64,000 nt of DNA from an uncultured Chlamydiales bacterium (GTDB lineage: Bacteria > Chlamydiota > Chlamydiia > Chlamydiales > JAAKFR01). Below, piece by piece: positions 20,787-41,255 of this stretch; within the stretch, counting starts at the first letter, position 1, and every line of letters begins with the position of its first letter. The DNA is taken from NCBI GenBank assembly GCA_963699155.1, contig OY969414.1, positions 1,355,757 to 1,419,756 on the forward strand, written 5' to 3'. The translations under genes and the position numbers were made by a program. The notes below the pieces were generated by a model. That model had not been told where the DNA came from. It saw only the letters and a program-made list of their open reading frames with translations, and did no database searches.

Positions 20787-21929
20787 GTGAGAAAAGCTTT
20801 TCGTTTTATTCTCCTTCTGGGAATTGTCAGCCTCTTTGCCGATATCACTTATGAGGGGGCGAGGAGTATCACTGGGCCCTACTTGGCGCTGCTGGGGGCT
20901 ACTGGTGCGGCAGTGGGCACTGTGGTCGGTTTTGGCGAATTTGTCGGCTATGGCTTGAGAGTAGTTTCGGGCTATATCAGCGACAGAACCCGATGGTACT
21001 GGACCCTGACCTTCGTCGGCTTTTTCATCAATCTCGCTGCTGTTCCGCTGCTGGCTTTGGTGGGCAGCTGGCAAGGGGCTGCGGCGCTCATTATTTTAGA
21101 GCGTTTGGGCAAGGCGATCCGTGTACCATCAAGAGACACCCTTCTCTCCTATGCCACTCGGCAAGCGGGGAGGGGCTGGGGATTTGGGATCCATGAGGCG
21201 CTTGATCAGGTGGGGGCAATTGTAGGCCCTCTTCTCATGGCGGCTATGCTCTTCTTCCAGCAAAGCTACCGAGTTGCTTTTGCCACACTCGGAATCCCTG
21301 CAGTCATTGCCTTTGTTTTTCTCATCCTCACGAAAGTGAACTTCCCCAGACCGCAGGAGATGGAGCCCACCCCTAGGGTGCATGTCAAAGGCTTTTCTCC
21401 TCAGTACTGGATCTATCTCATCGCGATCAGTTTTGTGGCTGCTGGCTATGTCGACTTTGCCTTGATCGCCTTTCATTTTAAAAAGAGTGCGACCGTCGAA
21501 TCGACCTGGATCCCCTTCTTCTATGCCATTGCCATGGCAGTTGCCGGCCTCTCCGCCTTGATAATGGGTCGGCTTTTCGATCGGAAGGGAATATCGGTTC
21601 TCGCCATCGTGACAGCCATCTCAGCTTTTTTCTCTCCCTTCCTCTTCTGGGGTCATTTCTATGGAGCCCTTTTTGGAATGGTTCTCTGGGGAATCGGAAT
21701 GGGATCGCAGGAATCGATCCTCAGAGCCTATGTCGCAGAACTCACCCCACCCGAAAAGCGCGGCTCTGCCTATGGCATCATGAACTTTTTCTTCGGCCTC
21801 TTCTGGGCTCTCGGCAGCGCCCTGATGGGCTTTTTCTACGACATCTCTCTTCCCGCGCTCGTCACTTTCTCAGTCGCTGCCCAGCTGATCGCCATCCCCC
21901 TGTTCTTATCATTTAAAAAGAATCTGTAA
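20787..21929 (+). CDS. MFS transporter
   Basis: Multiple TM segments; SLFADITYEGARS, GYISDRT, GRLFDRKG, KRGSAYG. Confidence 0.9.
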   Translation: MRKAFRFILLLGIVSLFADITYEGARSITGPYLALLGATGAAVGTVVGFGEFVGYGLRVVSGYISDRTRWYWTLTFVGFFINLAAVPLLALVGSWQGAAALIILERLGKAIRVPSRDTLLSYATRQAGRGWGFGIHEALDQVGAIVGPLLMAAMLFFQQSYRVAFATLGIPAVIAFVFLILTKVNFPRPQEMEPTPRVHVKGFSPQYWIYLIAISFVAAGYVDFALIAFHFKKSATVESTWIPFFYAIAMAVAGLSALIMGRLFDRKGISVLAIVTAISAFFSPFLFWGHFYGALFGMVLWGIGMGSQESILRAYVAELTPPEKRGSAYGIMNFFFGLFWALGSALMGFFYDISLPALVTFSVAAQLIAIPLFLSFKKNL

Positions 21930-23232
21930 TGACCTGAGCCAAGTAAAACAGAGCAGCTAAACGGGCACGAAAGCGTGTTATCTCTTTAGCTGTGGCGAGG
22001 GAGGCTTCGGGGTTGATATGTGCTTCGGTTTGTACGATGGCGTAGAGCATCCACGCCTCAGCTGGGGTAAAGAGGGCTTTTGCCCGAGCAAGGTTTTCAG
22101 ATGCGCTGGGTAAACCCCTTTTAGCGATAGTTAATGAGGCTACAAATTGCATGATTGGATCCTCAAAGTGGCTTTGTAATTCTGCACTGCTCATCCTTTC
22201 CGCCACTGCTGCCATAGCATCGCATTGAAACCACGGCTCACGGATATGAATGAGAAGAGAGCGTGCTTTTGGCAAGTCGACAGGCACAAGTAGTCGGATA
22301 AGATCAATCATCAACCCTTCGCGTAGACTGTCTGCCCACATAGACAACAAAATGGTTTCGCACAATGTCAAAGTATCTCTCAACCCATTGTATTGCAACT
22401 CTGCTTCTTTTCGGGCAATCGCAAAGAGGCCCAGGACTCGTTGTGCAGGAAGCTCTTCTGGCAACCATTCTTTTATTTTTTGCAATCCTGCTTCACTGGA
22501 ATCGATCTGAAGGCTGAGATCCACTGTTCTTGCAATGTCTCTTCTATCTTTACTTTCTAAAGCTAATTGAAAAAATTGGACCACCTCTTGAGGAGAGAGC
22601 AGATCTCTGGCGATTTCGAGCAAGCCCAGTAGTTGAAGAGGATGTTTCTCAGAGAGAGCTTTTGCCTTTTCTTGCTGTAAAATATCCTCTATCTTTTGGG
22701 GATCCCCCTCCAATATTTTCCAATTTAGTAGGGCAAGACCTTCTAACTTAAAGCAAGCTCCACTTTCTCGATCCACTTCAAACAAGATAGGAAAAAATTG
22801 TTGGTCAAAAGTCAGTTGTTCACCACGTGACAAGTTGCAGGGTAACCTCTTCAAAAATTTAAATGCCCGCTTTGCCTCCTTCTGATCGATCTCAAAAGAC
22901 AACTTAAGAAAGGGCACAACAAATGGAGCCACGTTTTCAACCATCTCAAGTGATACTTTCATCTCCCTTAAAATGTCGATGAGCAGCTTGAATTTGGGAT
23001 ATTTCTGAGGGAGGGCAACTACTAGTCGATTCCATGAAGTCGATACTAACAGACAGCGGAAAAGTTTGGTGAGGGGCAATAATTCAAAAACATGACTCCA
23101 TAGCTCATTGGGAAACTCTTGGGGGGCGAACTTGCTGGTAGCCATAGCGGTTGTCGGATCGGCAGCTGGTGCCGCTCCTTCCCCACTTGCAGCTTCCTGT
23201 GTCGGGAGTGATCTAATCTTTTCAATCGCCAT
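21913..23232 (-). CDS. F-box protein with helical C-terminus (putative effector)
   Basis: EFPNELWSHVFELLPLTKLFRCLLVSTSWNRLV. Confidence 0.8.
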   Translation of the reverse strand: MAIEKIRSLPTQEAASGEGAAPAADPTTAMATSKFAPQEFPNELWSHVFELLPLTKLFRCLLVSTSWNRLVVALPQKYPKFKLLIDILREMKVSLEMVENVAPFVVPFLKLSFEIDQKEAKRAFKFLKRLPCNLSRGEQLTFDQQFFPILFEVDRESGACFKLEGLALLNWKILEGDPQKIEDILQQEKAKALSEKHPLQLLGLLEIARDLLSPQEVVQFFQLALESKDRRDIARTVDLSLQIDSSEAGLQKIKEWLPEELPAQRVLGLFAIARKEAELQYNGLRDTLTLCETILLSMWADSLREGLMIDLIRLLVPVDLPKARSLLIHIREPWFQCDAMAAVAERMSSAELQSHFEDPIMQFVASLTIAKRGLPSASENLARAKALFTPAEAWMLYAIVQTEAHINPEASLATAKEITRFRARLAALFYLAQVITDSF

Positions 23233-24670
23233 GGGTAGTCAATTCAGCAATCGCCTTAGCTACCGGGAACATGGCGTCCATTCTTTCATTAGGTCTAGAT
23301 ACCCATTTGGCAGCCTCATAGGAGAGCTCGATATCGATTGGCAGAGCGACTTCTGAGAGTTGATGAAAGAGCCTCTCTATGCGTTCGCTGCTAAAGGGCC
23401 GATTAATCAATTTGGCGCGCTCAAATGCTTCTCGAACTCTTTTTTGAGCAGATTGTCGATCAGAATGAGCTTCTTTTCTAGATAAAATAATCAAACGCAC
23501 AACATGAGTCAAACGCGCCGCATAAGTCAATGGATCGCTTGGAGATTCAACCTCATTCATCGATGCAGTTTCGACAGCGTCCTTCGCTAAAACAAGAGAG
23601 TCTGCACAGTGTGGTTCTATAAGCCCCAACAGAGATTTTGCCTTTTCCAGATCGATCTCTGCCAGAATGCGGACCAATTGCGCTACGTCGCATGCATCGC
23701 GTTGATTTTTCTCCATTGCACGCAGAACTTCTTCAACTTTGCCTAAAGTAGCACCAAACCATATGCTTTTGGCCTCTTTCTCCTTCCGAGCAACTCGGAG
23801 CAACTCTTTGACTTGGAGTCTTGGCTCAGGCTCAAGTTCCAGGAGGGCTTTGACTTTTCTAAAACCCTCTTCGCTGGAATTGATCAGCAGGCATACTTCG
23901 ATCACTCTGAGAAGGTAAGGAAATCTGTCGAATTCATCTTTCACTCTTCTCATGGCATCTACAGCTTTTTGAAGGAGCTGCTCCCTCTCTTCAGGGGTTA
24001 GGCGCTCTCTGGCAGTTTCCAGTAAACCGAGAAGTCGATGGGGATCGGGAGATTCTGTAGTGAGAGCATATTCTTTTTCTTTTAGCACAGCCGCAGCTCT
24101 CCGTCGTGGATGGCCAACTAAGAGTGTCCAGCAGAACCGATCAAAATCATCTAAGCGTAGCTTTTGCTCTAATTCAGGATCGATTTCATAGACAACCGAA
24201 AGAAACGGATAACCCCCTAACTCACGAATCGTGTAATTCTGATTAGCTAGCAGGATAACCTTCTTAGCTTGATCCCGATCGATAGTGCCAGCCAGTTTGA
24301 GGAAGGGTACAGGCCATGGAGTTTCGCCATAATGATCTGAAGAATAGGTTTCAAATACCCAACTCCAGTATGTGGAAAGGTAGTTTCGCATCTTTAGTAG
24401 AATTGCCCGCAGTGTTTGGAAGTGCTCTTTCTTTCCGGGAAGAGAAAGTATGAGTGTGCGCCATTGAGTTGATACTGTGATGCAGCGGATGAGCTGACCC
24501 TCCGGCACGAATGAAAAAATCCGCTTTTCAATAGGCCCATTATGCTCAGAAAAATTGAGTTGAGGCAGAGCCACCGGAGTCACCGCAGCGGCATTCTTAG
24601 CAGCTGGTATGTCCGGTTGGGAGGTTCTTGGACCTACCATAGTATTATAGAGCGAACCTAAAAAAGCCAT
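23222..24670 (-). CDS. Divergent F-box paralog
   Basis: RIFSFVPEGQLIRCITVSTQWRTLI; shares PFLKL, LLGLLExAR, ARKE blocks with neighbours. Confidence 0.72.
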   Translation of the reverse strand: MAFLGSLYNTMVGPRTSQPDIPAAKNAAAVTPVALPQLNFSEHNGPIEKRIFSFVPEGQLIRCITVSTQWRTLILSLPGKKEHFQTLRAILLKMRNYLSTYWSWVFETYSSDHYGETPWPVPFLKLAGTIDRDQAKKVILLANQNYTIRELGGYPFLSVVYEIDPELEQKLRLDDFDRFCWTLLVGHPRRRAAAVLKEKEYALTTESPDPHRLLGLLETARERLTPEEREQLLQKAVDAMRRVKDEFDRFPYLLRVIEVCLLINSSEEGFRKVKALLELEPEPRLQVKELLRVARKEKEAKSIWFGATLGKVEEVLRAMEKNQRDACDVAQLVRILAEIDLEKAKSLLGLIEPHCADSLVLAKDAVETASMNEVESPSDPLTYAARLTHVVRLIILSRKEAHSDRQSAQKRVREAFERAKLINRPFSSERIERLFHQLSEVALPIDIELSYEAAKWVSRPNERMDAMFPVAKAIAELTTHGD

Positions 24671-24732: not shown

Positions 24733-25922
24733 TCAAGCGAGAACCTGCGCGAGATAGAGAAGGGCATGTAGACGTAAGTCTGTGTCACCGATTCTTGCTG
24801 TTCTGGTATGGGAAGCTTCGCTATTGAGATGGGCTTCAACTAAAGCGATTACATGGTGAAGATTATCATGAACATGCGGTGGGGCTTGATCGACAAGCGC
24901 AATGGCTTTCGAGAGTGTCTCTTGAGCCGTAGGCAAGCCGAGTTTTGCTTCTCTTTGGGCGCTTGCGCAAAGTCCCAAAAAAAGAGAGGGTAAGGGCAAG
25001 TTTTCTTGCTGTAGCTCTGCTTTTAACTCCTCATGCTGCTCTTCGGCAAATCTAAGAGTATCCCTTACACTTTCTCGCTTCAATTTGGCTTCTTTCCGTG
25101 CAAGAAAAAGTAATCCTCCAACAATATAGTTCTCATAATTTCTATTTGATAAGATCATGCGTCTTGTATTTCTCACGCCTTCACAGGAATCGATGAGAAG
25201 ACTTACCAGGAGCGCTTTTAAAAAATATGTCTTTCGATCTTTAAATCTCGGCAATGAGATAGCCATCTGGAATAGTCTCTCAACTTCGTCAGGTGGCATA
25301 TAAGGGTGTCCAATTTCTATAAAGCTCAGGAGTTGGAAAGGGTCAATCGGCTTTTCAGCGAGGAGCTTTTCCTTTTCTTTCAGGAGAATCATCGCTATTT
25401 TTGCAGGGTCTCCTTCCAAGATGGTCCACTGGAGCAATGGCAAACCCTTGTCGTACTGAGTTCTCCCTTTTTCACGATCCCTCTCAAATGTCAAAGAAAT
25501 TAACCGGCATTGCAATGTAAATTCTTCGATGGGCTTGATATTGGCCCGTTTTATTAGAAACTCAAAGCCACTTTTAGCCTGAACATGATCAACTTGGACT
25601 GCCAATTCGTAGAATGGGAGGATCCATGGGGTAGTAGTCCAGTTTCGGTTTAATAACCCATTTGTCTCCTTCAGAATCTTGAACAGCAGTGCGCTCTTTT
25701 TTCTATTTGGAAGAGTGATCATCAAATGGCACCAATGAGTCGAGACCAGCATGCAGCGGAAATGTTCAGTGATGGGTAAAAATAGAAAGATATGGCTCCA
25801 TATTTCAGGAGGAGATGTGGGCGCCATCTTGTTGGTAGCAAGCAGGGTGATTGGGTCAGCTACTGGATCAGCTCTTTCTCTCGTTGAAGCTGATAGTAAA
25901 TGGAGGATGAAACAGGTGCCAT
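24733..25922 (-). pseudogene. F-box paralog with probable 5' frameshift (intact ORF 24733-25827)
   Basis: PPEIWSHIFLFLPITEHFRCMLVSTHW; in-frame upstream ADPVADPITLLATNK matches paralog AAPAADPTTAMATSK; ATG at 25922 is 95 nt upstream, one base out of frame. Confidence 0.6.
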
Positions 25923-26065
25923 AGAGGGAGCAATTTTATTCCAAAAGAGCTTTTTTATAATTGGAATTTTCCTCTTCTCTTTTTGATTGTCTTTTCAGGC
26001 TATTTTGGAGTAGACTACAAAATAGACGCGTCTATTTTTTACTAGGATCCCAAGTAGCCGAGAGA

Positions 26066-27205
26066 ATGAGAAGGTATTGCCAGACAAATATTTTAGAAGA
26101 CCTTCGAAAAAAGATGGTCTTCATTGGTGGTCCGAGAGAGGTCGGAAAAACCACTCTAGCTAAACAGCTTCTCGATGAGTGGCCTAGGGGTGAGTATTTT
26201 AACTGGGAAGTCGATGAGGATCGAAGAGCTCTACTCCAAAAGGAGTGGAAAAGCCAAAGTCCTCTCATTGTCTTTGATGAAATTCATAAATATCCTTATT
26301 GGAAAAGATGGGTGAAGGGGGTTTGGGATTCGAGGCCGAAGGGACAAACCTATCTCGTCACAGGGTCGGCTAGGCTTGATATCCATAGAAGAGGGGGCGA
26401 CTCATTGATGGGTCGCTATCACTATTGGCGCCTCCATCCGCTCACCTTGGATGAGCTGCCTGAAGGGATGACGAGCGAAGAGGGCTACTCTAGGTTATTG
26501 AAATTTGGTGGTTTTCCGGAACCCTTCTTCGCGGCAGATGAGCGGGAAGCGCGGCGATGGCGGAGAGAGCGGTTCGATCGCATCATTAAAGAGGACATCC
26601 GCGATCTAGAATCGATCCGAAACTTAGGTCTACTCGAGCTTTTTGTCGATTCCTTACGTGCCCGAACAGGTGGATTGATCACCCTCTCTAATATTGCCTC
26701 AGACTTACAAATTTCTCCCAAGACAGCCTCCGCATGGTTAAAGGCTATCGAAAAAATGTATCTCTGCTTTGCCATTTATCCTTATACAAAAAACCTTCCA
26801 CGAAGCATCCAGAAGCCTCCCAAAGTCTACTTTTTTGATAATGGCGATTGTCTAGGGGAACGTTTAGAAAATCTCGTGGCTACCCATCTCTTAAAAAGGC
26901 TTCATTATATCGAAGATTACTATGGCCATCGTTGCCAGCTCTGTTACATCAGAGATAAGGATGGTCGAGAGGTCGACTTTGTGACGGTGATCGATGGTAA
27001 AGTCTGCGATCTGATCGAGGTTAAAGCTGCCGACGGCAACATCTCGACCAGCTTAAGATACTACACTAAACTGCTCAAACCAAAGCGTGCCATCCAAATT
27101 GTAGGCCAACTCGATCGTACCTTTGATCACGACAACATCCAAGTCACAACTCCCATTGAATTCTTCACTGACCCCCCTTGGAAGTCAACCCCTTCTCCTC
27201 AATGA
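26066..27205 (+). CDS. AAA_14 ATPase with DUF4143 C-terminus
   Basis: GPREVGKTT, FDEIHK, TGSARL, GGFPEPF, KVYFFDNG, EVDF..IEVK. Confidence 0.9.
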   Translation: MRRYCQTNILEDLRKKMVFIGGPREVGKTTLAKQLLDEWPRGEYFNWEVDEDRRALLQKEWKSQSPLIVFDEIHKYPYWKRWVKGVWDSRPKGQTYLVTGSARLDIHRRGGDSLMGRYHYWRLHPLTLDELPEGMTSEEGYSRLLKFGGFPEPFFAADEREARRWRRERFDRIIKEDIRDLESIRNLGLLELFVDSLRARTGGLITLSNIASDLQISPKTASAWLKAIEKMYLCFAIYPYTKNLPRSIQKPPKVYFFDNGDCLGERLENLVATHLLKRLHYIEDYYGHRCQLCYIRDKDGREVDFVTVIDGKVCDLIEVKAADGNISTSLRYYTKLLKPKRAIQIVGQLDRTFDHDNIQVTTPIEFFTDPPWKSTPSPQ

Positions 27206-28997
27206 ATGGCGGGTAGCCTCCCTCAGTGAGGATCTGGTGTGTGAGGGTTTTACATTCCCCAATGAACGCTTGCTGAGCTGCTATTGGATCTGGGGAAGTA
27301 TCGCGTCTTTCCATCATTTGTTGGTAATCTACACGATTGACAAGAGCCTTTTGCCAGGTAGCGTCTTGGGCGAGATAGTCGCAGTAGGCATCAAGGTTGG
27401 AAAGGCCTTCTCTGACAATTCCTTCTGCTCTTTGCAAATCAGCCTCTGAGACTGAGCTACATCTAAAGTAAAGCATCGTATCGAGAGCAATAGGGAGCTG
27501 CAGTTTTGCTTTCAGCATGATCGGATAAGCCAGATAGACCTCGATCTCATCAACGAAACGAAGTGTCTTAGCTTTGTTTCCTGCAATTTTTTCTAGCTCA
27601 CTGAGTGCCCAGCTGCCATGTCCCAGTAAATAGGCCAGTCGTTTTAAATCTTGAGCTTTCAGAGCTTTTGAAATTTCATAGAGCAAATCAACATAGAGAA
27701 GAGAAAGCGCCATCCTGTCGCCACAGGTCTCTGTCGCCCCCTGAATACAGCTGAGAAAGGCCTCTCTATATTCTGCATCATTCTCCGCATAAGCAATGGC
27801 CTCATAGATCTTTGTAGCCAACTCTTTCCGTTTATTTTTGTAATCGCCAATTGCAGAAAGCCTAGAGAGCCATAGGCGAACACTTTCAAGTTTCAATTGG
27901 GTCAAACGGAGAGGCTCTTTCCCAACAGCTTGAGACAACTCTCGAAGTAGCTCATCCAAAGAACGCTCAACAGTCGCTCGCTCTTCGAACACCGAATAGT
28001 GAATAGTAGGACCTTGATATCCAGGTGCGCTTGTGATCTCTCGAAGATTATCGATAATACGTTGTGAGAGAGGATTATTTTCTAGATGAATGATTGCTTC
28101 TCTTGGAAGAGACAGAATCTCCTCTGGCAAAGAGGTGAGTCGATTTTCTTCAAGGGTTAACGATCGTAATTTTTGGAGTTGTCCAATTTGAGGTGGCAAA
28201 GAGGTGAGTCGATTGCTAGTAAGAGATAACGTTCGTAATCGTTGGAGTTGTCCAATTTCAGATGGCAAAGAGGTGAGTCGATTTTCAAACAGCGCTAACG
28301 TTTCTAACTGTTGTAGTTGTCCAATTTGAGGTGGCAAAGAGGTGAGCAGAAGAAAATGAAGGTCTAACACTTCTAATTGCTTTAGTTGCCATATTTGAGA
28401 TGGAAAAGGGGGCGGCCTGAGATTAGCCAATTTTTCTAAGGTATTAGTATCTTCAAAGCATTGTCGAATTTCCTCGGCAACCTTTTTCCGAGCTTCCTTG
28501 ACCCATGCTTCTAGGCCTGATTTCTGCCGATCATACTCTGATTGGGATTCTGTGGGATGTGGCTGCGGGGGAGAGGTTGGCGAAGGTTCAGGAGCTGCCT
28601 TAGGGGTTGATAGAGGGAGGGAGGCGGGAGCCTCTCGCACTTCCGTGGGTGCGGCATGGGCTTCTGTTTGTCTTGGTTCTGATTGTGGGGGAGGAATTGG
28701 AGGAGGCTCTGGCTTGGGCTGAGTGGTGGTGGGGCGTTTGATGATAGCGGTGGTAAGGCAGGCGGCGGAAGTGGTACCACCGGCTACGAACAGGATGATA
28801 GAGGGGATTTTAGTGAGGGATGAAAGGAGCGGGAAAGACCACCAGTGATGATTGATCCCTAAGCCACCGAGGCCGGCTCCAGCGGTGACAAAGCCACCCA
28901 CTGTGAGAATGATCAAGATGGCAAAGAGCCATCTGTTTTGATGGAGGGTTGAGGGGAGATTTTGTTCAGATCTTATTGATGAAACAGGGTTTAACAT
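27165..28997 (-). CDS. LRR + NEL-type E3 ubiquitin ligase (IpaH/SspH-like) with N-terminal bilobed hydrophobic domain
   Basis: 23-aa LRRs; catalytic ETCGDR (CxD); DEIEVYLAY..LQLP..MLY; two N-terminal hydrophobic helices and Pro-rich linker. Confidence 0.88.
   Translation of the reverse strand: MLNPVSSIRSEQNLPSTLHQNRWLFAILIILTVGGFVTAGAGLGGLGINHHWWSFPLLSSLTKIPSIILFVAGGTTSAACLTTAIIKRPTTTQPKPEPPPIPPPQSEPRQTEAHAAPTEVREAPASLPLSTPKAAPEPSPTSPPQPHPTESQSEYDRQKSGLEAWVKEARKKVAEEIRQCFEDTNTLEKLANLRPPPFPSQIWQLKQLEVLDLHFLLLTSLPPQIGQLQQLETLALFENRLTSLPSEIGQLQRLRTLSLTSNRLTSLPPQIGQLQKLRSLTLEENRLTSLPEEILSLPREAIIHLENNPLSQRIIDNLREITSAPGYQGPTIHYSVFEERATVERSLDELLRELSQAVGKEPLRLTQLKLESVRLWLSRLSAIGDYKNKRKELATKIYEAIAYAENDAEYREAFLSCIQGATETCGDRMALSLLYVDLLYEISKALKAQDLKRLAYLLGHGSWALSELEKIAGNKAKTLRFVDEIEVYLAYPIMLKAKLQLPIALDTMLYFRCSSVSEADLQRAEGIVREGLSNLDAYCDYLAQDATWQKALVNRVDYQQMMERRDTSPDPIAAQQAFIGECKTLTHQILTEGGYPPFIEEKGLTSKGGQ
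28125..28410 (-). repeat. 69-bp tandem repeats encoding LRR units
   Basis: GGCAAAGAGGTGAG recurs every 69 bp, in frame with LRRs. Confidence 0.9.
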
Positions 28998-29032
28998 GGA
29001 AATTAGTATACCAGAAAAATGTAAAAAAATTA

Positions 29033-30283
29033 TTAATTTTTGATGGTGAGGAGGTCGGACCAGCGGGTGGTGAAGCAGGCGGAGCGCATGTTGCTCTTCT
29101 TCTTCCAGGGGCGGGTGGTGCCTTCGGAGGCGAACTGGAGGACCTCGTAGCCGAAGGTCTGGTTGGCGCGGTCGAGGAGGGCCATGGCGGTTTTTCGTTT
29201 GGTAGCGAGGGTGGTGTTCTGGGGGATGAAGAGGTCGGGCTGGTAGGTGTGGGCGGGGACGAGGCCGCCGAGGAGGATGCCAGCCTTCTTGTAGGTGGCG
29301 TTTTCGCGGTAGATGGAGCGAAGGCCCTGAGTGGCATAGTCGAGGAGGGTGGGGGTGTAGTCGGTGGGCTCGGGGAGGACGCTGTGGGCATAGTTTCCGG
29401 GCTCGTGGACACCTGTATAGGTGAAGACTTGGAGCCAGCTGGCGAGTTGCTCCTCTTCACGGAGCTTCTCACCACCGCGAGCAGCGTAGGTGCAGACGGC
29501 TTCGATCAGTTCGTCGAGAGAGGTGACGGGGCGGCCGAAGGAGCGGGAGGTCATGATGGACTGCTTCGCCGGAGCGACCTCTTCGAGATCTAGACAGGGT
29601 TTTCCCTGAAGCTCCCAGACGGTGCGGAGGGCGACAACGTTGAGCTGCTGTCTGACCCAATGGTCGGGGAGATCGCGCAGCTGTCCGGCAGTGTGGATGC
29701 CCTTTTTGGCTAAGAAGGTGGCAAGTCTGCGTCCAATGCCCCAGATCTCACTCGTCTCCAGTTTGTCTAAAAGCGCGTTGAGCTCACCGGTCGTAGGAAA
29801 GAAGACGCCGTTGTACATGGGATTTTTTTTAGCCGTATGGTTGGCCACTTTGGCGAGCGTTTTGGTGGTGGCGATGCCGATCGAAACGGGGATGCCAGTC
29901 CATTTGAGAACAGTTTCTCTGAGATGGCGGCAATGGGAGAGAGGATCGCCCTCTGAGACATGCAGGAAGGCCTCATCGATCGAATAGATCTCCATGTCGG
30001 GGTTGAAATGGGAGAGGGTCTGCATGACGCGGTGAGAGAGGTCGCCATAGAGGGCAAAGTTGGAGGAGCAGACGGCGACATCGTGCGCCTTGAAAAAGTC
30101 GGCCCACTGGAAGTAGGGCGCTCCCATCGGCACTCCCATCGCTTTCACCTCGGCCGACCTGGCCACGATGCATCCATCGTTATTGGAAAGGACCACGGTG
30201 GGACGGCCGATCAATTTGGGGTTGAAGAGCCGCTCACAAGAGACAAAAAAGTTATTACAATCCACTAAGGCGATGTATGGCAT
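29033..30283 (-). CDS. umuC: Y-family DNA polymerase V catalytic subunit
   Basis: ALVDCNNFFVSCERLF, VLSNNDGC, YSIDEAF, TKTLAKVAN, FTTRW. Confidence 0.95.
   Translation of the reverse strand: MPYIALVDCNNFFVSCERLFNPKLIGRPTVVLSNNDGCIVARSAEVKAMGVPMGAPYFQWADFFKAHDVAVCSSNFALYGDLSHRVMQTLSHFNPDMEIYSIDEAFLHVSEGDPLSHCRHLRETVLKWTGIPVSIGIATTKTLAKVANHTAKKNPMYNGVFFPTTGELNALLDKLETSEIWGIGRRLATFLAKKGIHTAGQLRDLPDHWVRQQLNVVALRTVWELQGKPCLDLEEVAPAKQSIMTSRSFGRPVTSLDELIEAVCTYAARGGEKLREEEQLASWLQVFTYTGVHEPGNYAHSVLPEPTDYTPTLLDYATQGLRSIYRENATYKKAGILLGGLVPAHTYQPDLFIPQNTTLATKRKTAMALLDRANQTFGYEVLQFASEGTTRPWKKKSNMRSACFTTRWSDLLTIKN
30255..30283 (-). repeat. 29-bp direct repeat copy A (umuD-tail/umuC-head junction)
   Basis: Minus strand ATGCCATACATCGCCTTAGTGGATTGTAA. 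Confidence 0.9.
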
Positions 30284-33200
30284 TGAGAGGCTGAGAAGTT
30301 GCTATGTAGTGTTCTTTATCATCCCATTCACTCGCTTCCAGATGCATATAGCCTATGGCTGCAGCAGATGTTCCACCTGGCTGATCATCATTGGCATAAT
30401 AGATCCAGTTGTCCTCTACTTGAATCGCAATCCCTCCTTTACGGTGGAGAAAGTCCTCAGTGAGATCTGAAGCATGCAAAGCAGAGAGGGGCTGATGGGT
30501 GAAGGGGATGGGGAATCCGAGGAATGTCTTGGGATTTTGTTCCACTTTTAGAATGCGGACTGCGAGGCAGGCACTTTTTACAAGATCATCCTTATCTCGG
30601 AAATAGCCATTCAACAAAGCAGCCACGATGCGGAGGACAGAGCATTGAGCAAACATCTCAGCCCCCTCAGGAGTCAAAAGAGCAACCTGCTCTTCATACA
30701 TGCGAGAGAGGCGTTCTACAATGTCTCGAGCGATCATCGTTAAGGAGATGGGATCGAGCCCTCGAAAAGCCGCTTTGGTATTGTGGATTTTTTTCTCATC
30801 AACATGTTCTTGAATGAGCTCAATCCCTCCTTTGAGAATCGCTTTAATTACGGGGAGAGGGATCAGTTCGAAAGCCTCCTTAAACAGCTCGACAATCTTA
30901 GAATGAGGAATCTTTTCTGCAATATGAGAAATTACTTCTGAAATAGGTTCCAGAGCGGGTTCAAGAAGGCCCATCATCTCTACAGCTCGATCGCCGACAC
31001 CTTTTTCACCTCTATTGGCAGCGCGTGTCGCCTCTCCGCGAGATCTTTGGAGTAGTTTGAGGGGGCTTTGTTGTAAAAAGAGGACAACTAGGGCGCTCGA
31101 GAGTTGGGTGAGCAACGTGTCGTGGTATACCTGTTGACTGATTTGCCCACTGCCGTCGCTGGAAAGGACCCTCTCTATTTTGGGAAATTTTTCCAGTACT
31201 TCGCGAAATGAGGAGGGAAAATGGTCGACTTCTGCCCAAAAGGCGCCTTCCACTCCATGAAAGAGGGCGGCTATTTCAAAGGGGTTATCGCAGAAAGAGG
31301 CCCACTGCTTGAGATCTTGATGCAGTTCTTTATCTTTCCATTCATAAGTGAAGACTTTTTGTCCAAAGAGCTCAAACATCTCTCTCGATTGATCTCGCTC
31401 TCTCAACTGATCGGCTGTTTGGAATCCGAGATCTTGGACAAAGGGATCGGGAGTATCTTGTACCAACAAGGAATGGGTGGATTCTTCCCATCGATAGGTC
31501 GCTGACCAGTGAAGGGGAAGTCTGCCCCAACCATCAGGTTGATCGACAGGGTAGCCTGCGGCTCTCAAGTCATATACTAGAGCTGTCTTGTTATGGCGAC
31601 AGGCCACATTCAGTAGCGCTGAGGATTGAAGGAAAGCAGGTTTTTTTTCTAGAGGTTTAATCTCGGCTTCATAAAATTCGACGGCTCTCTTTTCCCGAAA
31701 GGCTTGTGTAAAAAGAGGAGAGGGGTCAGCAAGTTCTTGTGCTTTGATCACCCTTTCGCTCCATAAAAAGCGTAAGAAAGGCCATAGCTTTAGCTCCTCT
31801 GCCAACTTAATCGCTGTTTTACCATTCCCATCAGGGAGGCGCACATTGGCTCCATGCCGTACAAGTAACAAAGCGCAAGGGATCGATAGCGCCTCAAGAG
31901 CTAAGTGAAGAGGGGCTTTTTGATCTGTTCGCTGTGCATTGACTGCCTTTTTGAATGTCCAGGAATATAATTTTTGAGAGAAATGGCCCAGCAGGCTTCT
32001 GAGAAGAAGATAATGACCCGAATCGGCAGCAAAATGTAATGCAGACTGCCTCTCAGGATTGGAGGGTTCTAAATCATCGGCAGGTCTCAATACTTTTCGA
32101 AGGATACGATGCTTTTCTATCTCTGGCGCTTCTTCCTCTGCGCTGCAGATATATTCTATAAAGAGACGTAGAGATCGTGCAGGCCTTCCTTCCCATAAAG
32201 GAGGAAGGTAGTCAGGAGAACAGTTCCCTAAGAGAAAAAAAGCAATAGGATAAGCCCCTCTCGTCAGAGCAAATTCAATATGCTTTTGGGAAACACGACC
32301 CTTCTGTTCTGCAAAGTGGCGAATGATGGCAAGGTGACCTCCGGCAATGGCGATAAGAAAGGGGTCTTCGTCAGAATTTAGAGGTCTCTCTTTAGCATCA
32401 GATCTATTCAGCATCTCTTTAACAAACGACTTAGCTAGGCATCTCGTTTCAAGATGCTCTAAGAGCTGAAGATGGCCATGTCTTATGGACAAGAGATAGA
32501 GTTGCCGATAGTCATTGAAATTCCCAGCCAGATGGGCGGGATCGATGAGTTTAAACCACTCCGCTGACCGAGCAAGAAGCTCCACATCCTGGATATGGAG
32601 TCTTATTTTTTGAAGTAAGAGTCGCAGAGTTTCCTGGCTGACAGGATACTGAGAGGCCAATTCTAAATAAGGATGCACTTCTTTTCTATCGTACTTATAG
32701 TCTAAATTACCCTGCACCAGGGGCAGAAGGTATTGGGCAACCACATCACCCCCATAATTCCCCATTTTCAATGCGTTTTCCAGCAAGGCCAACCAGATAT
32801 CGAAAGCCTTTTCTGAGTTTTGTGCATACATCAGTGGATAAAGAGTCGAAATCACCCTCTCCTTCCCTGGACTATCCATCTGCTCTAGGGCAGTTCTCTC
32901 AAGTCCAGTCGTTAAAAATAGATCACAACCGCCGTGAGCAAGTTGACGGATGGTTTCCACATAGGATTTTCTGCAGGCATTGTAAAGGGCGAATCTACCC
33001 CTGTGATTCTTCAAATCACGCACTGTGCTGACCTCTTGCCTCTCAAATAAGAGCTCCACAAGGCGTTTTCCTTCTGCGTCTCCCACTCTATTTTTTGCAG
33101 CATGATGGAGTGGGGTATTCCCCACAGAATCTGGCGTGGAGGCGCTCACTTCTGCTTTTTTCAGTAATTCCGCAGCAATTTCTGTTAAACCAAAGTGGCA

Positions 33201-33653
33201 GGCGAGATGTAGCTGCGTCCAACTTTTCTTCTTGCCATGCTTACTTACCTTTGTGAAAGGGGTTGTCAGAAACAGCCCTCTCCCAATCGCAGCTTGGAGA
33301 AACCGAGTTGCACGGCAGGGGTATGCCGATTGGACATGTTGCTCTCTGATCGGTATTTGAGCGGAAAGAGTGGTGGCAAGGGCATCGTGCTCTTTGATCA
33401 ATTGGAGCAAAACCGTGTCTAAGAGATTTTCTCCCTGGGGGCATTTTTGAATGGCGCGAACTACACCATCAGGCTTGAGCTGCTCAGGGTTAGGTTGTGC
33501 TCTATGCCATGCCACGAAAGAAATTTTCAGATCTTGAAAAAAGGTGCCAGTATGCTTTGCAACCCGTTCTGCGAGAGCGGAGCCGTTGATAATCCCCTCC
33601 CAGTATGATTTGTAATCCTCTGGGTTGGTAGTTGAAGGAATCGGACGCGCCAT
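30255..33653 (-). CDS. Large ankyrin-repeat protein (putative effector)
   Basis: TQLHLACHFG, GNTPLHHAA, SALHFAADSGH, APLHLAL, GANVRLPDGNGKTAI, GRLPLHWSA. Confidence 0.88.
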   Translation of the reverse strand: MARPIPSTTNPEDYKSYWEGIINGSALAERVAKHTGTFFQDLKISFVAWHRAQPNPEQLKPDGVVRAIQKCPQGENLLDTVLLQLIKEHDALATTLSAQIPIREQHVQSAYPCRATRFLQAAIGRGLFLTTPFTKVSKHGKKKSWTQLHLACHFGLTEIAAELLKKAEVSASTPDSVGNTPLHHAAKNRVGDAEGKRLVELLFERQEVSTVRDLKNHRGRFALYNACRKSYVETIRQLAHGGCDLFLTTGLERTALEQMDSPGKERVISTLYPLMYAQNSEKAFDIWLALLENALKMGNYGGDVVAQYLLPLVQGNLDYKYDRKEVHPYLELASQYPVSQETLRLLLQKIRLHIQDVELLARSAEWFKLIDPAHLAGNFNDYRQLYLLSIRHGHLQLLEHLETRCLAKSFVKEMLNRSDAKERPLNSDEDPFLIAIAGGHLAIIRHFAEQKGRVSQKHIEFALTRGAYPIAFFLLGNCSPDYLPPLWEGRPARSLRLFIEYICSAEEEAPEIEKHRILRKVLRPADDLEPSNPERQSALHFAADSGHYLLLRSLLGHFSQKLYSWTFKKAVNAQRTDQKAPLHLALEALSIPCALLLVRHGANVRLPDGNGKTAIKLAEELKLWPFLRFLWSERVIKAQELADPSPLFTQAFREKRAVEFYEAEIKPLEKKPAFLQSSALLNVACRHNKTALVYDLRAAGYPVDQPDGWGRLPLHWSATYRWEESTHSLLVQDTPDPFVQDLGFQTADQLRERDQSREMFELFGQKVFTYEWKDKELHQDLKQWASFCDNPFEIAALFHGVEGAFWAEVDHFPSSFREVLEKFPKIERVLSSDGSGQISQQVYHDTLLTQLSSALVVLFLQQSPLKLLQRSRGEATRAANRGEKGVGDRAVEMMGLLEPALEPISEVISHIAEKIPHSKIVELFKEAFELIPLPVIKAILKGGIELIQEHVDEKKIHNTKAAFRGLDPISLTMIARDIVERLSRMYEEQVALLTPEGAEMFAQCSVLRIVAALLNGYFRDKDDLVKSACLAVRILKVEQNPKTFLGFPIPFTHQPLSALHASDLTEDFLHRKGGIAIQVEDNWIYYANDDQPGGTSAAAIGYMHLEASEWDDKEHYIATSQPLNAIHRLSGL

Positions 33654-33658
33654 ACTGT

Positions 33659-33687
33659 TTACACTCCACTCAGGCGATGTATGGCAT
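33659..33687 (-). repeat. 29-bp direct repeat copy B
   Basis: Minus strand ATGCCATACATCGCCTGAGTGGAGTGTAA; 27/29 identical to copy A. Confidence 0.9.
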
Positions 33688-34057
33688 AGGTGACAACCCC
33701 CCAGACCTGGAAGTCAGAGCCCTCGCTCACCTCGATGACTGGATAGCGGGAATTCTCTGGTGCAAGGAAAATTTTTCCTCCCTCGATTTTGAGTCGCTTC
33801 ACAGTGAACTCTCCATTCAGAAGGGCCACCACGATTTTGCCATGGTGGGCCGTGAGCGCGCGGTCGACAACTAAAACATCTCCTGAATGAAGTCCGGCAT
33901 CCTTCATCGAATCGCCCTCTACCCTTACAAAAAAGGTCGCGGCTGGGTGTTCGATGAGCAGCTCATGGAGATCGAGAGGGCGCTCGATATAATCTTCGGC
34001 AGGGGAGGGGAAACCGGCGGGGACTCCCACTTCATAATAAGGTAGAGTTTTTTGCAT
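33659..34057 (-). CDS. umuD: DNA polymerase V autoproteolytic subunit (S24 peptidase)
   Basis: VPAGFPSPAEDY, RVEGDSM, EFTVKRL, WGVV. Confidence 0.95.
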   Translation of the reverse strand: MQKTLPYYEVGVPAGFPSPAEDYIERPLDLHELLIEHPAATFFVRVEGDSMKDAGLHSGDVLVVDRALTAHHGKIVVALLNGEFTVKRLKIEGGKIFLAPENSRYPVIEVSEGSDFQVWGVVTYAIHRLSGV

Positions 34058-34102
34058 TTTTACCTGATAATGATTTAATCAAAAGGATGATATTTTTCCT
34101 AT

Positions 34103-37397: not shown

Positions 37398-38654
37398 TTA
37401 TATAGAAATCACTAAAGGAGCTGAGAAATTCCCATTGATATCTACGGCGACGATGTAATAGATGTTATGTTTCTTCTTAGAACAAATCTCAAAGATAAGG
37501 GGACCAGAAGCAGGAACTCTCTCCAATTCTTGTGTTAAACCAGCGTCAGCAAACACAATATAGAATGCCGGTGTTGTACCAAACGTTGGGGGGCTCCAGG
37601 TCAATGTATTCTCGTAGCAGACCTGAGTTAGGAATTCATCTACCTTTTGGGATGCACTGCCGTTCGTGGGAGATTGAATCGCAATGAAGAAAGCTATTCC
37701 AAAAGGGTTCGAACCTACAGGAATTGTGGCCACAACATCATTGGTGGCCGTATTGACTGCACTGACCGTGTTGCTGCCCCTATTGGGAAAATAGACAAAT
37801 GGATCAGGAGTAATAGCGATTCCCGCAGGTCCAAAGCCAACATTTGTAGTAATCGTATCGGTAACCATGTTTGTAGAGGTATTGATGACTGAAATGGAGC
37901 CGATGCCGATATTATTATAATTAGTCACATAAGCAAACTGTCCATCCGGAGTAATGGCAACAGCTACTGGAGAGGTACCGACAGGAATAGCTGTACCCAC
38001 AACCATATTGGTAGTTGTGTCGATCACAGAGACGGTACCACTGCCGCCGCCGTTGTAGTTGGGTACATAAGCAAATTGACCATTGGGAGTAATGGCTAAC
38101 TCAAAGGGTGTAGAGAATTGTGTAGATGAAATTGTATCTACCACCATATTGCTTGCTGTACTGATCACAGAAACTGAATTGGCACCGGAGTTAGTCACAT
38201 AGACAAATTGTCCATTGGGGGTAATAGCAACACCAACGGGGTTGGTACTGACAGGAATGGTGTTGACAAAGTTGTTAGAAAGATTGATCACGGAAACAGT
38301 GGCACTATTGTAATTGGCTACATAGGCATATTGATTGTTTGGGGTAAAAGCAATTCCCCATGGCCCGCTTCCAACCCCTATGGAGCCCACAACTTGATTT
38401 GTAGCTGTCTGGATTACAGAAAGCGTGTTTCCACCAAGGTTAGACACAAAAGCATACTGTCCATTGGGTGAAACCGCTACATATACAGGGTCAGAACCTA
38501 TACCTGTGGTAATTGTGTCGGTGACTGTATTGGTGGTCATATCAATCACAGACACCGACGACGCACCAAAATTGGTCACATAAGCATAATTGGTTGCGAA
38601 AGCTTGTGAGAAGCAAAAGGTAAGCAGAAGAACAGTCATCCATATTCTTTTCAT
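37398..38654 (-). CDS. Secreted YVTN/YncE beta-propeller protein
   Basis: Signal peptide; repeated AYVTN..SVSVIDT / P..VAITP.GQ blades. Confidence 0.9.
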   Translation of the reverse strand: MKRIWMTVLLLTFCFSQAFATNYAYVTNFGASSVSVIDMTTNTVTDTITTGIGSDPVYVAVSPNGQYAFVSNLGGNTLSVIQTATNQVVGSIGVGSGPWGIAFTPNNQYAYVANYNSATVSVINLSNNFVNTIPVSTNPVGVAITPNGQFVYVTNSGANSVSVISTASNMVVDTISSTQFSTPFELAITPNGQFAYVPNYNGGGSGTVSVIDTTTNMVVGTAIPVGTSPVAVAITPDGQFAYVTNYNNIGIGSISVINTSTNMVTDTITTNVGFGPAGIAITPDPFVYFPNRGSNTVSAVNTATNDVVATIPVGSNPFGIAFFIAIQSPTNGSASQKVDEFLTQVCYENTLTWSPPTFGTTPAFYIVFADAGLTQELERVPASGPLIFEICSKKKHNIYYIVAVDINGNFSAPLVISI

Positions 38655-38742: not shown

Positions 38743-39864
38743 CTAGAGATATAGAGATTTTAGGAAGTTTTCTGCTCGGAGCAAGTGGATATGAGCCTCG
38801 ACTCTTTCTCTCTTTAACTCCTTCACAACTTGGCATGCGGGGAGCTGATATTTCTCATGAAAGTAGCATAGGTGGGGACTGATGTGGTTATCTGAGACTT
38901 TCGCTTCGATGATCTGCTTGATCTGTTGGTTAGAAACTATGGCGAAGTCGACCTCATGTTTATCTTTGGTGGCGAGATAGTGGAGAGAACACTCTTCTGC
39001 TTCATAATCAGTTTTCGCGAATAGATGTTTGAGAAGGCAGAGGGCCATGAGGTTTTCAAATTGAGCTCCCGTATCCCCCTTCACAAGTCCCACATCGAAG
39101 AAATAGATTTTTGGTTCTTTAAGTAGACTTCGCGCAATATTATGGCCGAAAGGTGTGATGCGAAAAACAATATAGAGCGCTTCGAGTATTTGGATATACT
39201 TTTTAACAGTATTGGGTGAAATGGCAGCATCTTCTGCGATGGAAGTGTAGGAAATAGGCGATCCTATTCTCGAACGGAGCAGTTCAAATACGATGCGTAT
39301 CGCATTTAAGTTTTGGATCTTGTCAAAATCGAGCACATCCTCTCTCAATAAACTATCGATATATTGCAACCGCCAGCGGTTGGCATCGATCAGCTCTTCG
39401 GCCAGGAAGGGTTCTGGAAAGCCACCCCTCTCAATAAAACGATCTAGGGGATAATGGAGATTTAACTTTTCGCATTCTGCAGGTGAGAGTGGCATGAGAC
39501 GATGGAGGAAATAGCGGCCTGCTAATGAATCTCCCACGCGATTAAAAATTTCGAGTCGAGCACTTCCCGTTACCAAGATTTTCTGGTGGGTCGGTTTAGT
39601 ATCATAGATGCCTTTCAGGAAATTCTTCCATCTGGGCATCTTGTGAATCTCATCAAGGATCAGCAATTCGGTCGAAGGGATCCAAGCCTCCTTCAAAAGA
39701 ATCTTCCTATCTTCAGCCCGGTCATAATTGAGATAGAGGGATGATTTAAACTCCTCAGCGATCTGCTTGGCCAAAGTGGTCTTACCTGCCTGTCTCGGCC
39801 CTGCCAAAAGCACCATTTTCTTTCGAAGGTCTTTGACGATCGCCTGCTTCTGATACCGTTCCAT
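38743..39864 (-). CDS. AAA_14 ATPase with DUF4143 C-terminus
   Basis: GPRQAGKTT, LDEIHK, TGSARL, GGFPEPF, KIYFFDVG, EVDF..IEAK; likely ATG 39864. Confidence 0.9.
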   Translation of the reverse strand: MERYQKQAIVKDLRKKMVLLAGPRQAGKTTLAKQIAEEFKSSLYLNYDRAEDRKILLKEAWIPSTELLILDEIHKMPRWKNFLKGIYDTKPTHQKILVTGSARLEIFNRVGDSLAGRYFLHRLMPLSPAECEKLNLHYPLDRFIERGGFPEPFLAEELIDANRWRLQYIDSLLREDVLDFDKIQNLNAIRIVFELLRSRIGSPISYTSIAEDAAISPNTVKKYIQILEALYIVFRITPFGHNIARSLLKEPKIYFFDVGLVKGDTGAQFENLMALCLLKHLFAKTDYEAEECSLHYLATKDKHEVDFAIVSNQQIKQIIEAKVSDNHISPHLCYFHEKYQLPACQVVKELKRERVEAHIHLLRAENFLKSLYL

Positions 39865-40010
39865 ACTGACTATTTTGCATGCCATTGCGGAAAAATCAAG
39901 ACTTTTTCGCAACAGCTTGCAGAAAAGTCAATCGCCTCTCAGTGTTCTCTGCCGCCCTTTCGAAAAACCATCAAATGTTTTTATGAAGCCCACTCGGTGT
40001 AGCGGGGGGG

Positions 40011-41255
40011 CTATATAGAAATCACTAAAGGGGCTGTGAAATTTCCATTGATATCCACAGCAACGATATAATAGGTGTTATGTTTCTTCTTAGAACAAAT
40101 CTCAAAGATAAGGGGGCCGGAAGCAGGAACTCTCCCCAATTCTTGAGTTAGACCAGCGTCAGCAAACACAATATAGAATGCCGGTGTGGTACCAAATGTA
40201 GGGGGATTCCAGGTCAATGTATTCTGATAACAGACCTGAGTTAGGAATTCATCTACCTTTTGGGATGCACTACCGTTCGTGGGAGGTTGAATCCCAATGA
40301 GTAACCCTATTCCAAAAGGGCCCGTACCTACGGTAATGGAAGTAGTAACAGTATTGCTGGTTGTATCAATCACACCGGCCGTGTTTGTTCCCCGATCGGC
40401 AAAATAAGCAAATAATGAATCAGGAGTAATCGCGATCCCGGCAGGAGCTCCACCTGTAAGAATTGTGTCGGTAACTGTATTATTAGCTGTATTGATGACT
40501 GTAATGGAGCTATCGCTATTATTAGTCACATAAGCAAATTGACCACTAGCGGTAGTGGCAAAAGCAACAGCTACAGGACCGAGACCTGCAAGAATAGCTG
40601 GACCTGGAACCGTATTGTTAGCTGTATCGATCACCGAGACAGTGCCATTGCTATTGTTGGGTACATAAATATGCGAACCATCAGGGGTAAAGGCTAACTC
40701 AAAAGGACCAGAGAATTGTGAAGATGTAATTGTGTCAGTCACTGTATTGCTAGCTGTGCTAATTACAGAAACTGAATTGCTGACAAGGTTAGAAACATAG
40801 ACAGATTGTCCATTGGGGGAAATAGCAACACCGACAGGGTCACTACCGACAGTAATGGTACTGATGACAAGATTGTTAGAAAGATTGATCACGGAAACTG
40901 TGCCACTACCGAAATTGGCCACATAGGCAAACTGGCCGTTTGGGGTAATTGCGATTCCAAAGGGCCGACTACCTACAGCTATACTACCTATAACTGTATT
41001 AGTAGATGTCTGGATGACTGAAACTGTGGTTCCACCATTGTTAGTCACATAAGCAAACTGTCCATTGAGTGAGAATGCAACATCGACAGGCTGCAAACCG
41101 ATGCCTGTCATAATGGTTGTGACGACTGTATTGGTGGTCGTATCGATCACTGAGACAGTGGGTGGACTCGCATCGTAATTAGTCACATAAGCAAAATTGG
41201 TTGCGAAGGCTTGTGTGAAGCAAAAGGCCAGAACGAACATCCATACTCTCTTCAT
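40011..41255 (-). CDS. Secreted YVTN/YncE beta-propeller protein, paralog of 37398-38654
   Basis: Same architecture; near-identical C-terminal domain. Confidence 0.9.
   Translation of the reverse strand: MKRVWMFVLAFCFTQAFATNFAYVTNYDASPPTVSVIDTTTNTVVTTIMTGIGLQPVDVAFSLNGQFAYVTNNGGTTVSVIQTSTNTVIGSIAVGSRPFGIAITPNGQFAYVANFGSGTVSVINLSNNLVISTITVGSDPVGVAISPNGQSVYVSNLVSNSVSVISTASNTVTDTITSSQFSGPFELAFTPDGSHIYVPNNSNGTVSVIDTANNTVPGPAILAGLGPVAVAFATTASGQFAYVTNNSDSSITVINTANNTVTDTILTGGAPAGIAITPDSLFAYFADRGTNTAGVIDTTSNTVTTSITVGTGPFGIGLLIGIQPPTNGSASQKVDEFLTQVCYQNTLTWNPPTFGTTPAFYIVFADAGLTQELGRVPASGPLIFEICSKKKHNTYYIVAVDINGNFTAPLVISI

Follow-up and report, generated by a model that had tools for sequence, protein, structure and literature searches.

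How can a foreign gene come to lie between umuD and umuC, two genes that share their junction, and leave both of them intact? The question is raised by a locus of an uncultured Chlamydiales bacterium within a stretch of 64,000 nucleotides (nt) of contig OY969414.1, positions 1,355,757 to 1,419,756, here called the window. On its minus strand umuD, an ankyrin-repeat gene of 1132 amino acids (aa) and umuC follow each other head to tail, all three intact, an order that the initial annotation had given correctly together with the coordinates and readings. We favor, with moderate confidence, the view that the ankyrin gene was captured into the umuD/umuC overlap in one step, with the junction being duplicated in place.

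The repeat at the junctions and the empty site in relatives

A 29-bp direct repeat brackets the insert. Its two copies, identified with a repeat finder and by direct reading of both, are identical at 27 of 29 positions, have a spacing of 3404 bp and leave 3375 bp between them. On the coding strand the repeat runs exactly from the ATG of umuC to the TAA of umuD, so each copy can be read in two frames. In the umuD frame, copy 1 reads AIHRLSGV-stop and ends umuD, and copy 2 reads AIHRLSGL-stop and ends the ankyrin gene. In the umuC frame, copy 2 reads MPYIALVDC and starts umuC, and copy 1 reads MPYIA-stop owing to a change of TTA to TGA. The duplication thus leaves the three genes whole, and the ankyrin gene borrows its stop codon and C-terminal peptide from umuD, both as initially proposed. 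A pattern search of the 2.40-Mb genome with the 29-mer, allowing up to three mismatches, found two sites only, namely the two copies, and the reversed control pattern had no match genome-wide at the same tolerance. Beyond the 29 bp the flanking sequences are identical at 16/60 and 18/60 positions on the two sides, which is the random level. The 29-bp repeat is not a product of chance.

Both old genes retain the features of their family. In UmuD the Peptidase_S24 profile is matched at positions 5-115 of 116, and the translation contains the motifs GDSM and TVKRL, whose Ser and Lys we take to be the catalytic residues after E. coli UmuD. The gene is 46-78% identical to the umuD that adjoins umuC in 18 loci of relatives. 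UmuC, with full-length Y-family domains and the motifs LVDCNNFF and SIDEAF, aligns with its relatives over residues 1-414 of 416 and is 74% identical to the protein of the same-genus genome G002. Compared to the DNA polymerase V operons umuDC, mucAB and rumAB, UmuD and UmuC are intact here and the usual overlap is seen in the relatives; however, the adjacency of the two genes, a usual trait of umuDC, is broken in the window by a third, unrelated gene of 3.4 kb. It is noted that the composition of umuC itself is extreme, with a GC content of 58.4% and a GC content at third codon positions (GC3) of 75.5%, at the 99.9th percentile of 987 long open reading frames (ORFs). GC3 is 54.9% in umuD, 43.9% in the insert and 44-66% in the umuC of nine relatives. 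The high GC of umuC opens long antisense ORFs at 28949-29593 (+) and 28966-29475 (-).

To see the site without the insert, umuDC loci of related chlamydiae were compared, as the initial annotation had suggested. Among 41 genomes from the same order that were searched for umuC, the window's genome included, 29 have the gene and the other 12 gave no match at E ≤ 0.001. Nineteen relatives' loci were fetched. In 18 of these umuD lies directly against umuC or overlaps it (tblastn), and the same kind of dual-coding overlap is present at the junctions printed for those 18. The 19th locus (G015) has a umuC that is short at its C-terminus, with only 341 nt of contig upstream of it; this 341-nt stretch contains no umuD-like sequence and no ORF of at least 40 aa. 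A twentieth junction, in the same-genus genome G001, is again a direct umuD-umuC overlap, so that the comparison of empty sites covers the 19 loci plus G001. The order MFS transporter, aldo-keto reductase, EamA, umuD, umuC is kept in G003, G024 and G005. These conserved upstream neighbors place umuDC at its inherited position, with the insert present only in the window's genome, and by this comparison of gene orders the insertion is derived. The reverse history, in which the ankyrin gene originally lay inside umuDC and was lost in all relatives, is barely conceivable. Deletion between the repeats would be possible in principle; it would, as the initial annotation noted, remove 3404 bp and restore an ordinary umuDC. 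Against such serial loss stand the 18 uninterrupted loci among the 19, and the fact that the C-terminal domain of the ankyrin protein has only one marginal match among the 399 other scored genomes of the phylum.

The umuC of G001 (G001:C15:63042-64287) is split into two frames by an internal TGA while its umuD/umuC junction is intact, a sign of polymerase V decay in the group. With this split gene and the 12 genomes in which umuC was not found, umuDC seems dispensable in the group, and the site may be merely permissive rather than adaptive for the insert. A phylum-wide umuC search found none in one genus of the same order comprising 25 genomes of 1.0-1.2 Mb, which is consistent with the label chlamydia-like.

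The origin of the duplicate can be read from the bases that differ among copies and relatives. In G002, G003 and others of the family, umuD ends at a TGA two codons earlier; both copies in the window share a T-to-G change that turned this TGA into GGA and moved the stop to the TAA. Between the two copies there are 2 differences in 29 positions, and between copy 2 and the same-genus junctions of G002, G003 and G001 there are 4, 4 and 6. At both positions where the copies differ, the new base is in copy 1 and copy 2 has the base of the relatives (T), a base that is constrained there by the umuC frame (L, D). Because the copies are closer to each other than to the junctions of relatives, and because the changes lie in copy 1, the duplicate appears to have been copied from the lineage's own junction. 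The simplest history suggested by these bases is that the lineage's own junction was copied and copy 1 changed afterwards.

Both changes would have been free to arise in copy 1 once it no longer coded for UmuC. The TTA to TGA change leaves the UmuD residue as it was (CTT to CTG) and, in the other frame, stops the vestigial umuC reading after five codons. The other change, GAT to GAG, replaces Leu by Val in umuD and creates the string GGAG 10 nt before the ankyrin ATG. The 3' end of the 16S rRNA of this genome carries CCTCC, and Shine-Dalgarno-like words occur at -18 to -5 in 263 of 987 long ORFs vs 82 of 987 in a control window. That the vestigial start was closed and a GGAG created looks non-random and would be a footprint of later tuning, suggestive at only two sites. 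The same two substitutions have reduced the longest unbroken identity between the copies to 16 bp. Such a length is short for homologous recombination, and loss of the insert by this route should be rare.

An assembly artefact, i.e. a chimeric join that placed an unrelated gene between umuD and umuC, has to be considered as well, given that the genome appears to be metagenome-derived. The public data sets listed for the stretch are three contig sets from soil metagenomes, of one study and of low depth, and include no RNA set. Their short contigs are identical to parts of umuC, of the ankyrin gene and of the flanks. One contig of 177 nt is identical over 30120-30296, crossing the umuC-proximal repeat and extending 13 nt into ankyrin-specific sequence. 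The umuD-proximal junction is not covered by these contigs, which may stem from the source sample and are then not independent. However, a misjoin would not produce a 27/29 duplicate with both frames kept, an in-frame fusion and a start codon 5 nt away, and the genome is a single contig of 2.40 Mb. Judged from these sequences, a misjoin is very unlikely.

Table 1. Coordinates of the features discussed, in positions of the window
Feature	Position	Strand	Description
umuD	33659-34057	-	132 aa, intact; Peptidase_S24 E 2.8e-31
Spacer ACAGT, 5 nt	33654-33658	-	umuD TAA to ankyrin ATG
Ankyrin-repeat gene	30255-33653	-	1132 aa; lineage-specific insert; last 8 codons and stop umuD-derived
Ankyrin repeats, residues 148-245	32919-33212	-	best stretch for Ank_2
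Second ankyrin cluster, residues ~536-618	31800-32048	-	Ank_3 536-557, Ank_5 571-618
C-terminal domain without Pfam model, residues ~842-1122	30288-31130	-	HMMER E down to 5e-37, alignment
umuC	29033-30283	-	416 aa, intact; IMS, IMS_C, DUF4113
Repeat copy 1	33659-33687	-	end of umuD; carries vestigial umuC start
Repeat copy 2	30255-30283	-	umuC start and, in the other frame, ankyrin tail and stop; ancestral states kept
Divergent intergenic region, 45 nt	34058-34102	-	upstream of umuD; presumed operon promoter
LRR (leucine-rich repeat) and NEL (novel E3 ligase) gene	27165-28997	-	35 nt downstream of umuC; NEL E 2.2e-30 and LRR models

The ankyrin gene and its ends

The ORF of the insert matches Ank_2 (E 6.8e-27) together with Ank, Ank_3, Ank_4 and Ank_5, and in its own genome the sole match is the gene itself, so that no paralog is present. 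No orthologue was found in the 40 relatives, where matches are at the level of the ankyrin repeats only (E ~1e-5). A word-indexed search of 5.8 billion clustered proteins likewise gave no full-length relative, only repeat-level matches, mostly to eukaryotic ankyrin proteins; with the C-terminal region as the query, the same index returned the protein itself only. A protein-atlas feature search gave ankyrin clusters only.

Relatives of the C-terminal domain, at about 35% identity, were found only by a full HMMER scan. With residues 641-1132, 73 proteins were matched at E ≤ 0.001, 33 of them also at E ≤ 1e-10, with the protein itself among them. Among the best 44 of these matches (P0083-P0126), 40 align in BLASTP at E ≤ 1e-5, and the region shared by the 40 comprises about 270 aa, ankyrin residues ~842-1122. 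The homologues are large, mostly 800-2266 aa, and the ten that were looked up all come from metagenome assemblies. No Pfam model matched the shared region in any of 17 homologues scanned. Elsewhere in these 17, pentapeptide repeats were found in five, a UCH ubiquitin hydrolase in three, ankyrin repeats in two and WD40 in two, and eight had no Pfam match. In two other homologues the domain is followed by the string GDGNCAFNA, which may be OTU-protease-like. An AlphaFold model of residues 842-1132, obtained with 17 aligned sequences, has a mean pLDDT (predicted local distance difference test) of 74.8 and is mostly helical with a small beta-rich end. Foldseek gave no match of this model in the PDB at E ≤ 0.001, and the best of 48,161 chains compared by VIA-align reached a Z of 4.8, which is below the meaningful level for helical models. 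The locus thus exposes an unnamed domain of about 270 aa, common to very large proteins with ubiquitin-hydrolase, WD40, pentapeptide or ankyrin modules, and we regard it as a candidate new host-interaction domain.

In the phylum this domain is nearly absent. It was not found in the 40 relatives, and among 400 scored genomes (one further genome, G044, could not be scored) there were two matches, the own genome and a marginal one at E 3.9e-4. Species-representative genomes gave no match to the domain in a profile scan with a smaller alignment; a further scan of such genomes gave only a pentapeptide-repeat match in a gammaproteobacterial metagenome-assembled genome. Since the domain is nearly absent from the phylum and no orthologue occurs in the relatives, the gene is, on its distribution, foreign to the lineage.

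Where the foreign sequence begins and ends was examined by alignment with its homologues. The closest of them, P0083 (2186 aa), shares three blocks with the ankyrin protein in the same order, residues 84-192 with 111-217, 338-801 with 331-842, and 836-1072 with 1915-2171; the middle block has 32% identity (E 7e-56). Near the C-terminus, the end motif of the family, with the consensus GYMxVSxEE..YF..V, aligns to IGYMHLEASEWDDKEHYIATSQP at ankyrin residues ~1103-1122. The umuD-derived 29-mer begins at N1124, and the family homology ends about 2 residues before it. Thirty-four of the 40 aligned homologues run on for at least 76 residues, with linkers, coiled-coil-like tails or enzyme domains, and the remaining six stop within 38 residues, some of them maybe cut by contig ends. 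These alignments make it most likely that the 3' part of the captured gene was lost and that the remainder was joined in frame to the final eight umuD codons. On the 5' side, the ankyrin ATG is the first possible start in its frame, and the insert brought neither a promoter nor a ribosome-binding site of its own. The alignment of the N-terminus with P0083 is not significant, with a score of 39 compared to 27.4 ± 4.7 (maximum 48) for shuffled sequences.

Routes of entry

The ends of the insert do not resemble those of a mobile element. No inverted-repeat pair was found at them among the 14 pairs listed, and the insert encodes the ankyrin ORF only; terminal inverted repeats and a transposase, the features of a transposon or insertion sequence (IS), are absent. 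The locus resembles a transposon target-site duplication in having a short direct duplication of the target around the insert. In contrast to transposons, which usually duplicate 2-14 bp, it has 29 bp, lacks terminal inverted repeats and transposase, and is unique in the genome. No transposase or integrase lies within ~9.7 kb (Pfam, ORFs of at least 180 aa, from about 17.8 to 45 kb), which bears out the earlier statement that the insert has no adjacent integrase or IS. Closest is a transposase-like rve gene at 43807-44976 (+), ~9.7 kb from umuD. Just beyond the window end, identical repeated ORF tails (genome positions 1430563-1443447) are probably IS copies.

The initial annotation also suggested a search for other genes flanked by such junction duplications. 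As paralog arrays and REP-like (repetitive extragenic palindromic) repeats dominated a repeat scan of the genome, ORF tails were used instead. Two ORFs on the same strand were paired if they lie within 15 kb of each other and have no more than 4 differences in their last 27 nt. The genome has 24 such pairs. In 23 of them the upstream 60 nt are related (at least 35/60), marking paralogs or repeats; umuD and the ankyrin gene form the only pair with random flanks, and no second case was found. Considering that there is no second case, no recombinase nearby and no inverted repeats at the ends, a single illegitimate recombination event is indicated rather than a mobile element or a cassette system. 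What we describe is a one-off, a single event in a single genome.

These observations bear directly on the mechanism put forward in the initial annotation, a Campbell-type integration in which a single-gene circle with its own 29-bp copy of the junction would enter by one crossover and could be excised again. Direct repeats do bracket the insert, and deletion between them restores the normal junction; islands are known that restore the end of the gene they enter, e.g. one integrated into recA of Vibrio cholerae (PMC4405046). Nevertheless, this mechanism is decidedly improbable and was not sustained. No recombinase gene lies within ~9.7 kb. The repeat has derived bases of the lineage itself, so that a cassette copy would need to originate from the same lineage. 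The gene is promoterless, it ends in a tail and stop of umuD sequence and its likeness to the family breaks off at the junction, which is not the build of a self-contained cassette. No second instance occurs in the genome, the sites of relatives are empty, and the longest uninterrupted identity is the short one given above.

Some integrative islands and prophages, such as islands in tRNA genes, restore the 3' end of the gene they enter. Flanking direct repeats and a target end present twice are common to these elements and the locus, and with the recA island of Vibrio cholerae the locus shares a DNA-damage gene as the target (PMC4405046). Compared to such islands, however, the present locus has no integrase and no att-like structure, holds one promoterless gene, and has a duplicate that comes from the recipient's lineage. 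In addition, the duplicated piece is dual-coding here; it repairs two genes and also terminates the incoming one.

In the one-step capture that we favor, a horizontally acquired, promoterless and 3'-truncated ankyrin gene would have been inserted by non-homologous (illegitimate) recombination at the 29-nt umuD/umuC overlap, and the recipient's own overlap would have been duplicated in the process. The upstream copy lets umuD end normally and the downstream copy lets umuC start normally. Two routes to such a duplication in one step may be envisaged: fill-in of a staggered double-strand break, or a change of template during replication, out to a donor molecule and then back. Features expected of an illegitimate insertion are present, namely an insert whose ends are unrelated to the target, the 29-bp target duplication, and end-joining genes. 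The genome has a Ku gene (E 2.2e-55) followed, with an overlap of 4 nt, by a LigD gene with ligase and primase-polymerase domains (G000:C1:1146162-1148228). The gap-filling activities of LigD are described in a review of bacterial non-homologous end joining (PMC1378119, in its passages on gap filling and end processing). Capture by Ku and LigD would agree with the locus in that no homology is needed at the joints and that gap filling by the LigD polymerase could duplicate a staggered end. The passages of PMC1378119 concerned deal with the filling of gaps and the processing of ends; that an entire gene could be captured in this way, with 29 bp duplicated, is our own inference.

Several observations weigh against this reading. 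The limits of the repeat are exactly ATG and TAA, and a random staggered break would seldom give such boundaries; limits so sharp need microhomology, later trimming or strong selection. At the 5' side, the break falls very near the gene start, only 5 nt before an ATG that lies within ~30 residues of the N-terminus of P0083, as estimated from the collinearity offset. P0083 stops 15 residues past the aligned part, so the 3' truncation is not certain. Gene conversion between the copies could mimic a recent common origin. The composition of the insert is unremarkable, with a GC content of 47.2% vs 47.5% for the genome and GC3 at the 20th percentile, as would be expected if the event is old or if the donor was similar in composition. 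With respect to the exact limits, it is possible that they reflect microhomology at the start and stop triplets, or selection among many events for those that kept both genes and their coupling, or trimming.

Trimming is the core of a multi-step alternative, in which a larger duplication of the junction, or of the whole operon, came first, foreign DNA was placed between the copies, and deletion bias then removed the surplus until 29 bp, the functional limits, were left. It would explain why the similarity ends exactly at ATG and TAA and, the genome being compact, why the spacer is a minimal 5 nt; the decay of umuDC in some relatives (umuC split in G001, not found in 12/41) also agrees with it. 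On the other hand, nothing is left of a second umuD or umuC and the flanks are random, at 16/60 and 18/60. The homology of the ankyrin family reaches to ~2 residues from the umuC ATG of copy 2, so that the deletion end-points must still hit the exact limits, and more events are required than in one step. We consider the multi-step history unlikely. Taking one step and several steps together, an in-place duplication of the recipient's junction is put forward with considerable confidence.

In the open-access literature searched, no gene inside umuDC is described, and neither is the duplication of an overlap as a route of insertion into an operon. The locus is best filed as gene capture by illegitimate recombination, in which the target duplication is unusually long and matches the functional limits exactly. 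A junction where a stop and a start overlap is usually regarded as an obstacle to operon insertion, and here the duplication of a short dual-coding overlap removes the obstacle. It keeps both old genes, and supplies a promoterless and apparently 3'-truncated newcomer with a stop codon as well as a position in the transcript.

Expression and neighborhood

Upstream of the three genes, non-coding sequence is confined to the 45 nt between umuD and the EamA gene, which starts at 34103 on the plus strand. In a consensus scan, no minus-strand promoter-like site was found within umuD, and no promoter- or terminator-like site at either junction. Since the 5-nt spacer leaves no room for a promoter and the junctions are free of promoter- and terminator-like sites, a tricistronic transcript is taken as the default. 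Co-transcription of umuD, the ankyrin gene and umuC is likely, and the three would be read together from the umuD promoter. Two weak minus-strand promoter-like matches (9/12) inside the ankyrin gene, at 33007-32979 and 32688-32660, speak against this, as they could drive umuC separately; the region has 12 promoter-like sites compared to 6.8 ± 2.4 expected.

On the predicted transcript, translation of the ankyrin gene may begin by re-initiation or from the new Shine-Dalgarno-like GGAG. The ankyrin ORF terminates 26 nt downstream of the umuC ATG, a geometry formerly that of umuD, and translation of umuC would be coupled to this termination as it formerly was to that of umuD. The G-rich stretch that precedes the umuC ATG in relatives, inside umuD, is not duplicated here. 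The initiation of umuC now probably depends on ribosomes that end the ankyrin ORF.

Damage-inducible (SOS) control of the locus is an assumption. The genome has a LexA homolog (G000:C1:983794-983985), and no operator shared by the upstream regions of umuD, of lexA and of the umuD of relatives was recognized by eye, the only way in which these were compared. If expression follows umuDC induction, a host-directed protein would be linked to the DNA-damage response in a chlamydia-like symbiont. A farther-reaching view would have the ankyrin protein wired into a DNA-damage operon, made only on umuDC induction and coupled in translation at both ends, with host manipulation tied to genotoxic stress and overlap duplication serving as a general, scarless route of gene entry. 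This view as a whole is speculative and we think it unlikely.

Regarding function, the ankyrin protein is probably a host-directed, eukaryote-like factor, and the label "effector", applied to it in the initial annotation, is only plausible. Pointers in this direction are the ankyrin repeats, the C-terminal domain shared with giant ubiquitin-system, WD40 and pentapeptide proteins, and the F-box and NEL genes nearby. The Ank effectors of Legionella, Coxiella and Anaplasma resemble it in having eukaryote-like ankyrin repeats and an intracellular-type genome, here with F-box and NEL genes alongside. In contrast to them, it has no sequence relationship beyond the repeats, and its C-terminal domain belongs to an unnamed family.

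The LRR-NEL gene downstream of umuC (Table 1) may be the fourth gene of the transcript or have its own promoter; TGGTATACT was read as an extended -10-like string for it. Its product is of the IpaH/SspH type and has a proline-rich linker; a membrane segment is predicted at its N-terminus. The gene was not found beside umuC in stretches of 10-20 kb from five relatives. Further downstream, two genes for F-box proteins at 21913-23232 (-) and 24733-25827 (-) flank an ORF of 482 aa (23222-24670) that has no Pfam match, and, with the NEL gene added, the F-box genes make up a small group of ubiquitin-system mimics on the downstream side of umuDC.

Two pairs of paralogous genes complete the surroundings. 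Genes for beta-propeller (lactonase/YNCE-like) proteins lie at 37398-38654 (-) and 40011-41255 (-), upstream of the block of MFS transporter, aldo-keto reductase and EamA genes. Genes for AAA_14/DUF4143 ATPases are found on either side of umuDC, at 25961-27205 (+) and 38743-39912 (-), and a match to both is present at the edge of the stretch from G002.

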